Shown here piece by piece: positions 5,646-8,600 of a DNA stretch of 64,000 nt. Made by a program: the position numbers and the translations under genes. Location of the stretch: positions 128,001-192,000 of the forward strand of contig CM000429.1 of assembly GCA_000165345.1 (NCBI GenBank). The letters run 5' to 3'. How positions within the stretch are numbered: the stretch's first letter is position 1; each line of letters starts with the position of its first letter. A model generated the notes under the pieces. It was not told the origin of the DNA. It made no database searches and worked only from the letters and a program-made list of their open reading frames with translations.

Positions 5646-8600
5646 TTAAATATCAGCTTCTTCAGCTTCTTTATTAATATCATCTATTTGTTGTTGTATT
5701 TCTTGGTTGAGAATTTTATCTTCAGTAGTTTTTTTTGCCCTCTGACCAAAATCACGTTGCAAAAAGTCGTCAGAATCACTTTGGTAGTCTCCTTCATCTG
5801 TAGTTATATCAATATTTGTGCTAGGTTGTTGGTTTAAATCAGAAGGATATCCTGAAGTGATAGTTTGCCCTGGAGCTTGTGGGGGTGTTGGTGGCGTTGG
5901 TGTTGGAGTTGGTGGAAGTGTTGGTGGTGGAAGTGTTGGTGGTGGAAGTGTTGGTGGTGGAAGTGTTGGTGGTGGAAGTGTTGGTGGTGGAATTGTTGGT
6001 GTTGAAATTGGTGTTGGTGGAAGTGTTGGTGGTGGAATTGTTGGTGCTTTTGGAGTTGGTGGGAGTGGTGGGAGTGGTGGGAGTGGTGGGAGTTTCGGTA
6101 GTGTTGGAGATGGTGGAGATGAAGGAGATGGTGGAGTTGGTGGGAGTGTTGGAAGTGTTGGTGTTGAAATTGTTGGTGTTGAAATTGGTGTTGGAGCTGG
6201 TGGAGTTCCTGCAGGACCCGATATTACCGAAGCTCCTTGTTGTATTGGTGAAGCTGGCTTTAAGCCTGATGATGTAGTTGCCCCTGAATGACGCATTTCC
6301 TTTTCCTTTTCAAGAGCTTCTTCATGTGCCTTATTTAAATCAACACTGCTTGAATCGGTTAAAATTCCTTTAATATCATCTCCTTCTCCGCCAAGCTCTT
6401 CCAATAACTTATCTTCAACCTCTTCAGGGGTAGGAGATAATGGGCTTGGAAGTGTTGGAGATGGAACTCCTGGGGCTGTTGGAGGTGGTGAAGACGGAAA
6501 TGCTGGCATTGGCGGAGCTGGTGGAGATGGTGAAAGTGTTGGAATTGGAGGCGGTGGAGGTTGGTATTCAGGTTTTGGCGGAATTGGTGAGGATGATGGT
6601 GGTGTTGGAATTGGAGACGATGGAAGTGGGTATCCAGGCATTGGTGGAGATGGTGGAGGGAATAATGGTGGTGCTGGCACTGGCGGAGGTGGTGGGGAAA
6701 ATGATGGTGGTGTTGGAATTGGAGACGATGGAGGTGAGCGTCCAGGCATTGGTGGAGATGGTGGAGGGAATGATGGTGGTGCTGGTGCTGGCACTGACGG
6801 AGGTGGTGGGGAAAATGGTGGTGTTGGAATTGGAGTCCCTGCAATTGGCGAAACTTCTGCAGGTGAAGCAACTCCTGAAACTTGTGAAGCTGGAACCGTT
6901 GGACTTCCTGCAGCAATTGGAGTCCCTGCAACCGTTGGACTCTCTGGAGTCATTGGAGATCCTGTAGCAATTGGAGTTCCTGTAGCCGTTGGACTTTCTG
7001 GAACTGATGAAGAAATTTGAGTTTCTGGAATTTCTAAAGTAGGCTTTGATTCTTTAACTAAAGAAGTACCCAATTTTTTTCCAAGCCCTAATCTTCTTTT
7101 CTTTCCGTTTGTTTTTGCTTTTTGCTTTTTATCACTCCTTGACTTCTTTCTGCCTGCTCCCTTTTTCCCATGCTTTCTAGAAGCAACTCCTTTACCTTGC
7201 TCTGCATCTGATGACAACTCCGAGCTTGAATATTCTTTGTTCCCAGTCTTCTGTATTCTAGACCTTAGTCTATCCAATACCTTTCTTTTTTTCAATTCCT
7301 TTTGTTTAGACCATCTTTTCTTGAATTTCTCTTGTTTCATCTCACTAATTATACTATTTGCAACCAAATCTATTATACTTTCGCTTGAACCTTCTGTTTT
7401 ATTATCTTCTAACTCCGCATTTTCTTTACCTACTTCTCCTTTTTTCCTATCCATCTCTTCTTTAATGGCGTTTTCCTTTTCTTTAGTTAAATCCAAACTA
7501 CTTGCACTTGTGTCAATTCCTTTAATATCATCACCTTCTCCTCCTAATTCTTCTAACAACTTTTCCTCTGATTCCCTTGCTGACTTTTCTGAACCCTCAA
7601 CTCTCACTGTAACTTCTCCTTTAGGTATTTTTCCTTTCTTCTCCTTGTACTTCTCTTCTTTGATGGCTTTCTCCTTTTCTTTAGTTAAATCCAAACTACT
7701 TAAACTTGTTTCAACTCCTTTAATATCGTCACCTTCTCCTCCAAACTTTCTCAATAATTCATCCTCAGACCCCTTACTTCCCTTCTTAATTCCTTTCTTA
7801 CTTCCCTTTTTACCTTCCTTCGGCCTTCTTGATATTGTAATTCCTCTCTTGGTCTTCTCCTTCTTGGTAGCTTTCTCCTTTTCTTTAGTTAAATCCAAGC
7901 TACTTGCACTTGTGTCAATTCCTTTAATATCATCACCTTCTCCTCCTAATTCTTCTAACAATCTTTCCTCTGATTCTCCTGTAGAGCCTTGTAAATAATC
8001 CCAAGTCTCATGTCTCTCAATCCTTGCCTTTTCCTTATTTATTCTCCTCATCCTATCTTCTTCCATCTTCTTCCTTCTATTAGAATCCAAAAGAGATTTT
8101 CTTAGTCTTGTTCTCGGCCAAGAAAACAATAATTTCCTTTTCAAAAACTTAATGGATTCCTCCATTCGTTGATTGTAGTATTTCTTTAATTGAATTGCTT
8201 CTTTAACATAAACAGAAATCTCCTCCCTTAGTTTCGTCCTAGCACTTGATATATTCTTACTCTTCTTTTGACCAGAAAGTGCTTTAAACTGTTCCAATTT
8301 ATCGCTTAATTCCGATCTTAATTTTATCATCTTCGCTCTAACACTTTCTGATTCTCTTTCATTCGTACTTGGACCAGTTGCTATCTCCCTATCCAAAATC
8401 ATTATTGCGTTGGAAATCCTGGAAATCATTAAAGAACCAGAAGGCCCTTGCTCATTTCCTGAACTGTCTGAATCACTAGTCAAATCAAAACTACCTATTT
8501 CTGAATCTCTACTTGCGTCACTTGTTTGAACATCGCTTGTATCTGTCATAAAACTATCCAAGTTTAATCCAGGAACAATGTTTTTCATTGTATTTAATAC

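Follow-up and report, generated by a model that had tools for sequence, protein, structure and literature searches.

The stretch of DNA described here (referred to below as the window) consists of 64,000 nucleotides (nt) of contig CM000429.1 from assembly GCA_000165345.1 (positions 128,001 to 192,000 of the forward strand), has a guanine and cytosine (GC) content of ~30%, and contains long unbroken open reading frames (ORFs). One of these ORFs, on the minus strand, is cgd1_590, the gene for dense-granule protein 3 (DG3) of Cryptosporidium parvum. In the C-terminal third of its product we identified four copies of an acidic module, three in tandem and one distal, and the comparisons reported below indicate that this array very probably evolves in concert through short tracts of non-allelic gene conversion, with occasional duplication of whole units. 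The comparisons covered four species (C. parvum, Cryptosporidium sp. chipmunk genotype I, hereafter the chipmunk genotype, C. canis and C. ryanae) and three C. parvum isolates. The DG3 gene and the evolutionary process are already known, and what appears to be new is the module array in DG3. The features of the gene, in window coordinates, are as follows:

5646..13229, minus strand: the host gene, cgd1_590 / DG3 (dense-granule protein 3), an ORF of 2527 amino acids (aa).
7869..7976, minus strand: module copy 1 (aa 1752-1787, ESEERLLEELGGEGDDIKGIDTSASSLDLTKEKEKA), of which 7876-7976 is one arm of a near-identical pair; hidden Markov model (HMM) domain score 71 bits.
7773..7868, minus strand: spacer 1 (aa 1788-1819), Lys/Arg/Gly-rich, net charge +13, unalignable with the other spacers.
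7665..7772, minus strand: module copy 2 (aa 1820-1855, GSEDELLRKFGGEGDDIKGVETSLSSLDLTKEKEKA), the middle one of the three and the more diverged, of the 'KF' type, as are copies 2 and 3 of the chipmunk genotype.
7575..7664, minus strand: spacer 2 (aa 1856-1885), ending VEGSEKSAR, as does the chipmunk-genotype spacer that precedes its last copy.
7467..7574, minus strand: module copy 3 (aa 1886-1921, ESEEKLLEELGGEGDDIKGIDTSASSLDLTKEKENA), of which 7474-7574 is the other arm of the near-identical pair.
7365..7409, minus strand: what may be a degenerate half-module (aa 1941-1955, EDNKTEGSSESIIDL); it immediately follows the last tandem copy and runs into a predicted long helix; marginal.
6426..7034, minus strand: proline/Ser/Thr-rich tract 1 (aa ~2066-2268), between the tandem array and copy 4, built of 18-, 54-, 66- and 108-nt repeats.
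6315..6422, minus strand: module copy 4 (aa 2270-2305, EVEDKLLEELGGEGDDIKGILTDSSSVDLNKAHEEA), distal to the tandem array and divergent, with the second C. canis copy as its positional counterpart.
5874..6257, minus strand: proline-rich tract 2 (aa ~2325-2452), with short-period PPTLP and PPL repeats and length differences between isolates.

The peptide GGEGDDIKG occurs four times in the minus-strand DG3 ORF, at aa 1762, 1830, 1896 and 2280 (window positions 7920-7946, 7716-7742, 7518-7544 and 6366-6392). The spacings between these occurrences are 68, 66 and 384 aa (204, 198 and 1152 nt), with copy 4 downstream of copy 3, and an independent repeat search returned a four-member family of 126 nt at 6302, 7454, 7652 and 7856. 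A preliminary description of this DNA had reported an intragenic tandem repeat of roughly 200 nt. The three tandem copies do lie 204 and 198 nt apart, but only ~100-135 nt of each ~200-nt unit can be aligned, the Lys-rich spacers being unalignable between units. At periods close to 200 nt, Tandem Repeats Finder identified no array because the spacers of the units are unrelated and the module alone is alignable. The fourth copy that had been placed at 6359-6420, across the Pro-rich tract, was also found and falls inside copy 4.

The near-identity of copies 1 and 3 was confirmed in a different register from the one first given. The best block aligned 7474-7574 with 7876-7976 at an offset of 402 nt and was identical at 98/101 nt (97%), whereas the coordinates first given, 7481-7575 and 7881-7975, lie 400 nt apart and match at 22/95 positions, compared with 91/95 at an offset of 402 nt. 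Over the same 101-nt block copy 2 was 82% identical to copy 3 and 81% to copy 1, so that the copies are not equally diverged in pairwise alignments and the middle copy is, as had been proposed, the more diverged of the three. Copy 4 was 72% identical to copy 3 and 69% to copy 1 over this block. The 60 nt flanking the copy 1/copy 3 block were 43% and 37% identical on the two sides. The longest exact direct repeat in the DNA coding for aa 1-2010 was 62 nt, whereas 200 codon shuffles gave none longer than 17 nt, and the match between module repeats is far beyond chance.

The module is acidic and 36-45 aa long, with the consensus SExxLLExxGGxGxDIKGxxTSxSSLDLxKEKE. Thirteen copies from the four species had 13 invariant columns and were described by the cross-species pattern [SE]-E-x-x-L-L-x-x-[LFY]-G-x-x-G-[DE]-D-[IV]-x-G-x-x-T-[SD]-x-S-S-[LV]-D-L-x-K-E. 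Identity to the C. ryanae ortholog was 32-45% in windows dominated by the tandem modules and mostly 12-25% in other C-terminal windows, with 23% overall. The ratio of nonsynonymous to synonymous divergence (dN/dS) of the module, from three orthologous pairs, was 0.14, compared with 0.36 for aa 1-1700. By these sequence measures the module is a conserved island under purifying selection that is stronger than in the rest of the protein. It had been suggested that GGEGDDIKG might mark a wider family. A profile of 10 modules compared with 1.84 billion representative proteins had three matches, all of them DG3 orthologs, and the motif therefore defines no such family. As judged from this profile search the module is restricted to DG3 orthologs. 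No similarity of the module to Pfam or PDB entries was seen, and an exact-pattern scan of metagenome contigs gave 0 matches.

The number of modules differed between lineages. It was one copy at the tandem site and one beyond the proline-rich tract (1+1) in C. canis, three tandem and one distal (3+1) in C. parvum, at least four in the chipmunk genotype, which has four tandem copies and whose gene model ends in the proline-rich tract at a contig end, and three in C. ryanae. The C. ryanae copies are nearly identical tandem copies with GDDVAG in place of GDDIKG, in a protein without the proline tract. Within C. parvum the comparison of copy number among isolates, which had been recommended, revealed no variation: isolates HLJ and BGF have the same 3+1 arrangement as the window gene. 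As a separate observation, the C-terminus of the C. ryanae ortholog has seven tandem copies of GSDAEGGAAG in place of proline-rich tracts. It has no distal module copy in a gene model that reaches the contig end and may be incomplete.

Alignment of the arrays paired copies 1, 2 and 3 of C. parvum with copies 1, 3 and 4 of the chipmunk genotype, and left chipmunk copy 2 with its spacer as a clean 60-aa insertion, consistent with duplication of a 60-aa unit. The anchors of this alignment were the N-terminal flank KMEExRMRR...W, the sequence VEGSEKSxR before the last copy, and SSESIIDLVA after it. Since these spacer and flank signatures are common to C. parvum and the chipmunk ortholog, the three-copy state appears to be ancestral. 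Based on these signatures, the three tandem copies probably predate the split of C. parvum and the chipmunk genotype, whose common ancestor would already have had three copies with unrelated spacers.

Despite this inferred age, C. parvum copies 1 and 3 differ from one another at 6/108 nt, whereas each differs from its own positional ortholog in the chipmunk genotype at 21-22/108. In a 33-codon block the differences were 4/99 for copies 1 and 3 versus 21/99 for orthologs (Fisher p = 0.0004). The synonymous divergence (dS) was 0.18 for copies 1 and 3, whereas pairs of orthologous modules had 0.77-0.96 and the background of the gene (aa 1-1700) had 0.68. Module dS was 0.18-0.52 within species versus 0.77-0.96 between them, that is, paralogs of one species are closer to each other than orthologs are. 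In a neighbour-joining tree, bootstrap support was 100% for the grouping of C. parvum copies 1 and 3, 100% for that of the three copies of C. ryanae, and 92% for that of the pair in C. canis. Copy 4 fell outside a clade, also at 100%, that united every tandem copy from C. parvum and from the chipmunk genotype, which bears out the earlier suggestion that the distal copy is older. In addition, three codons separate all tandem copies of C. parvum from all those of the chipmunk genotype, each species being fixed for its own state: codons 27 and 29, with synonymous changes in Leu, and codon 30, with Thr versus Asn. Within the chipmunk array, and likewise within that of C. ryanae, stretches of 100% identity with abrupt ends linked the copies as mosaics. 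In C. parvum the 101 nt of 97% identity between much less similar flanks has the form of a discrete conversion tract with sharp borders.

The sharp tract edges, the homogenised synonymous sites and the mosaic identity together argue for concerted evolution by gene conversion, one of the two possibilities originally raised. We consider it very probable, from these sequence comparisons, that non-allelic gene conversion over short tracts makes the array evolve in concert, and that whole units are occasionally duplicated. In C. parvum an intragenic tract of ~100 nt, limited to the module, very probably homogenised copies 1 and 3, and copy number changes between species by duplication of whole units. 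Gene conversion in an intragenic repeat array is an ordinary evolutionary process.

Two other histories of the array were weighed. Under an ancient triplication without conversion, copies 1 and 3 would be alike through purifying selection on the peptide, and the low dN/dS and the 13 invariant columns do indicate that the module is under strong constraint. However, selection acting on the peptide would leave synonymous sites free to diverge, whereas these are homogenised between copies 1 and 3 relative to the orthologs. Furthermore, the synonymous states of codons 27 and 29 are fixed within each species and differ between them, and copy 2, whose peptide is equally conserved, nevertheless differs at 17/99 nt. 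Selection on the peptide alone is thus ruled out, and we regard this history as very improbable. A recent two-unit (~400-nt) duplication that made copy 3 a young duplicate of copy 1, which was the other possibility originally raised, fits the distance of exactly two units between these near-identical copies and the whole-unit duplication seen in the chipmunk array, but it is extremely unlikely, since such a duplication would have carried its spacers along whereas the flanks and the spacers after copies 1 and 3 are unrelated, no second copy-2-like module follows copy 3, and the VEGSEKSAR before and SSESIIDLVA after copy 3 match the surroundings of the last chipmunk copy, indicating an old position.

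Several points weigh against concerted evolution by conversion. The orthology of the tandem positions rests on short protein signatures in low-complexity spacers, which were used because spacer DNA identity is uninformative: global alignments of this purine-rich, low-complexity DNA gave 50-63% for every pair. No column within the module supports the orthology of copy 1 with chipmunk copy 1 or of copy 3 with chipmunk copy 4. Such a loss of orthology within the module is expected after conversion, yet it fits independent expansions too. The synonymous sites are few, at ~19 per module, and the clustering by species of the C. ryanae and the C. canis copies would be explained as well by recent independent duplication. 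Finally, the comparison drew on four species and three C. parvum isolates only.

The DG3 array resembles other intragenic repeats that evolve in concert through unequal crossing-over and non-allelic gene conversion, such as those of secreted or surface antigens of apicomplexans and of bacterial and fungal surface-protein arrays, in that copies from one species are more alike than orthologous copies, at synonymous sites too. It also shares with concertedly evolving arrays its mosaic tracts with sharp edges and a copy number that varies among species. It is unlike them in that the homogenised core is only ~100-135 nt of the ~200-nt unit, with spacers that diverge freely, and in that the module peptide is conserved across the genus rather than hypervariable and its copy number is stable within C. 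parvum.

Three further sequences within the gene were considered as related to the array. Directly after the last copy, the pattern ..EGxxSSESIIDL at aa 1941-1955 resembles the remnant of a half-module, with a chipmunk counterpart at aa 2006-2022 (KGENIEGVQSSESIIDL), which a local HMM search detected as a weak fifth domain of the chipmunk ortholog (4.6 bits). Such a half-module would suggest that the array was once longer. By contrast, the segment at 11444-11477 (aa ~583-600, LFGKFGELDDYNIYTSSL, with the pattern KFG..DD...TSSL), in the conserved N-terminal domain, which a DNA repeat finder placed with the modules at 71% identity, was not detected by the module HMM and is probably a chance similarity. 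What is read as a plus-strand ORF at 7237-7998 is not a gene but the low-complexity antisense strand of the module array.

The identification of the gene as DG3 was based on its full length and its setting. The ORF matched the 'hypothetical protein CPHLJ_1g590 [Cryptosporidium parvum]' with E = 0, 99% identity and 100% coverage, and its aa 1-2010 were 99.8% identical to that protein. The DNA of the gene on CP029780.1 (assembly GCA_031892065.1) was identical to that of the window. Locus 1g590 corresponds to cgd1_590, which has the literature name DG3, dense-granule protein 3 (PMC13241007). The gene has as its upstream neighbour a mitochondrial-carrier gene at 13927-14751 and as its downstream neighbour a dynamin gene, and the carrier adjoins DG3 in the C. 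parvum, chipmunk-genotype and C. canis loci. Both this neighbourhood and the near-identity over the full length place the window gene in the DG3 / cgd1_590 orthologous group.

In the protein encoded by the DG3 ORF, a hydrophobic N-terminal leader and ~720 aa of conserved N-terminal sequence are followed by a helical middle part and by a C-terminal third that is disordered and rich in repeats. A Pfam search of the whole protein identified no domain. The N-terminal region (aa 30-760, window 10950-13142), which likewise had no match in Pfam, was 39-75% identical across the four species with many invariant G, P, W and C residues. AlphaFold2 modeling of aa 30-760 with a 4-sequence alignment gave a mean predicted local distance difference test score (pLDDT) of 34, and no fold was obtained. 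A second conserved island lies near the C-terminus of DG3, past the last proline tract (5742-5780, aa 2484-2496, SDSDDFLQRDFGQ); its sequence is DDFLQRDFGQ in C. parvum, with DDEFLQRTFDQ as the C. canis counterpart, in surroundings that are unalignable.

The HLJ allele differed from the window gene by four substitutions and three insertions or deletions (indels) in 7.5 kb. All four substitutions were nonsynonymous (window positions 12890, 9620, 8057 and 7921, which are aa 114 I/L, 1204 E/K, 1725 D/N and 1770 G/E), and the last, G1770E, falls in module copy 1. These all-nonsynonymous differences, although small in number, hint at diversifying selection on DG3 within C. parvum. The indels, at 6602-6604, 6085-6093 and 5963-5992, were all in the proline-rich short-period repeats. 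Protein lengths in the three C. parvum isolates were 2527, 2513 and 2516 aa, the length in BGF differing too, and all of the length differences were within the two Pro/Ser/Thr-rich tracts. The repeats of these tracts include a 15-nt PPTLP unit present nine times at 5910-6046, a 9-nt PPL unit, and units of 108, 66, 54 and 18 nt. The tracts might serve as a typing marker; as to their function, they could equally be mucin-like O-glycosylated stalks or ligands of SH3, WW or profilin.

Elsewhere in the window, a tandem repeat with a period of 63 nt (~3.4 copies, 81-83% matches) was observed at 36575-36790, within an ORF at 36178..37260 (minus strand, 360 aa) that has no Pfam domain. Two minus-strand ORFs of 1272 and 1273 aa, at 20109-23927 and 25238-29059, were considered as a tandem gene pair and rejected, as they had no similarity to one another (BLASTP E = 0.69). 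Neither of them has a Pfam domain.

Tagged protein (DG3-HA) was reported to form a cup at the host-parasite interface (PMC13241007). In that report, expansion microscopy had DG3 overlapping an electron-dense band positive for N-hydroxysuccinimide (NHS) ester, under a ring of DG8/SG4 and over the host actin patch, and the assignment of DG3 to the dense band was credited to Guerin et al. 2023. The band is described there as positive for NHS-ester, which marks amines, and apparently without lipid. Dense-granule secretion builds the initial holdfast, including the dense band, and comes after the first host actin polymerisation (PMC13419397). A different label appears in Table 1 of PMC12604037, which gives cgd1_590 the entry 'Ortholog to TGME49_256760' and places it among potential microneme or rhoptry proteins, at odds with the experimentally shown dense-granule origin of DG3. 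No Toxoplasma protein was matched by the module profile search, which was aimed at the module and not at orthology to TGME49_256760. The accessible parts of the literature naming cgd1_590 or DG3 held no account of the module array or its concerted evolution.

To consider what the modules may do, the array was modeled with AlphaFold2 (aa 1711-2010, three-sequence alignment). Its pLDDT was mostly <60. The model contained short helices at SEERLLEEL, EDELLRKF, ESEEKLLEELGG and LDLTKEKEKA, also with pLDDT <60, a Gly/Asp/Ser loop between the SEERLLEEL and LDLTKEKEKA helices, and a long helix after the array (model residues 242-294) with pLDDT >90. In this model the array has the profile of a disordered region with short motifs that would fold on binding. 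Within a module two helices are predicted, the first short and amphipathic (LLxxL/F) and the second at LDLxKEKEKA, with a Gly/Asp loop (GGxGxDIKG) and then a Ser/Thr patch (TSxSS) between them. The low pLDDT, the local helicity, the conserved and repeated motif, and the fast-evolving linkers of variable length make the array similar to the multivalent short linear motifs, or molecular recognition features, of disordered scaffolds. It differs in that no curated family was matched by the module.

Based on these features, we propose that the disordered C-terminal third of DG3, a secreted protein, carries a conserved acidic module of ~36-45 aa in an array that varies between lineages, and that each copy would be a short docking motif that folds on binding to one partner, either a host cytoskeletal or terminal-web protein or a parasite interface protein. 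Through repetition of the motif DG3 would be multivalent and thereby able to build or anchor the dense band, a non-membranous structure. We consider this account as a whole, a concertedly evolving and conserved module array with a putative docking role, to be likely. The specific assignment of the module as a docking motif for a single partner, which comes from its sequence, is more tentative and, on its own, somewhat less probable than not.

Other roles for the modules were considered. With acidic modules alternating with Lys-rich spacers, DG3 could be a blocky polyampholyte whose charges condense it into the amine-rich dense band. The C. parvum charges do alternate (modules -4 to -9, spacers +13 and +4), Lys makes up 10% of the protein, and the band is NHS-ester positive and apparently free of lipid (PMC13241007). 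However, the alternation is not conserved: one chipmunk spacer has a net charge of -3, and spacer charge in C. ryanae is 0. Because spacer charge varies from -3 to +13 among species, charge alternation is not an essential feature of the array, and what is conserved is a set of specific residues (G, T, SS, DL, K) and not charge alone. Self-assembly through charge blocks therefore seems unlikely.

In secreted antigens of apicomplexans, concerted evolution of repeat arrays is common, as is variation in their copy number. On that general precedent the array might be an immunodominant repeat or antigenic decoy, drifting freely in copy number and sequence, and the four nonsynonymous differences out of four between isolates, one of them in copy 1, are in keeping with this. 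Against it, the module is the most conserved piece of the C-terminal third in proteins that are only 23-51% identical overall between species, its dN/dS is below that of the gene, and its copy number is constant in the three C. parvum isolates. Moreover, DG3 is deposited at the host-parasite interface, in the dense band, and not at the parasite surface (PMC13241007). An antigenic decoy is accordingly quite improbable.

The remaining alternative was suggested by the layout of the region. In WASP, WIP, VopL/VopF and TARP, motifs of the WH2 type stand beside proline-rich tracts. The DG3 modules could be WH2/beta-thymosin-like G-actin-binding motifs that, together with the proline tracts, would recruit or tether host actin in the manner of the WASP family or of bacterial effectors with tandem WH2 motifs. 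As in WH2 and beta-thymosin, a short helix, here a predicted one, is followed by a linker and then by a hydrophobic-Lys motif, and the whole is repeated beside polyproline and near an actin structure. As read from the sequence, the putative amphipathic helix LLEEL followed by a linker and I-K-G-V/I-E/D-T recalls LKKTET, proline-rich tracts lie on both sides of copy 4, and DG3 is in the dense band directly over the host actin patch (PMC13241007). The likeness is one of layout only. Neither single modules nor the 300-aa array matched the Pfam families WH2 (PF02205) and Thymosin (PF01290) at E <= 10 in a search in which control WH2 and thymosin sequences scored 35-82 bits. Alignment of the module profile with the Pfam-validated WH2 alignment by hhalign gave a probability of 0.1%, and a profile search of PDB revealed no similarity of the module to WH2 or thymosin chains. 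The Lys of I-K-G, present in the other three species, is replaced in C. ryanae (DDVAG, V-A-G) and is thus not conserved, and every module is acidic (net charge -4 to -11), unlike the basic WH2 motifs. In addition, host actin polymerisation starts before dense-granule secretion (PMC13419397). Together, these results make a WH2-like role very unlikely.

The composition of the electron-dense band has long been obscure, and DG3, the first protein assigned to it, was placed there only recently (PMC13241007). The module provides a defined target of ~40 aa for work on the binding of DG3 and on the assembly or anchoring of the dense band. A narrower form of the docking proposal, which we think unlikely, is that the module is a Cryptosporidium-specific docking motif for host actin, an actin-associated protein or a terminal-web protein, such that DG3, with its proline-rich tracts, would be an adaptor between the dense band and the actin pedestal. 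If this speculation were correct, the differences in valency between species, from 2 to at least 4 copies, would tune attachment.

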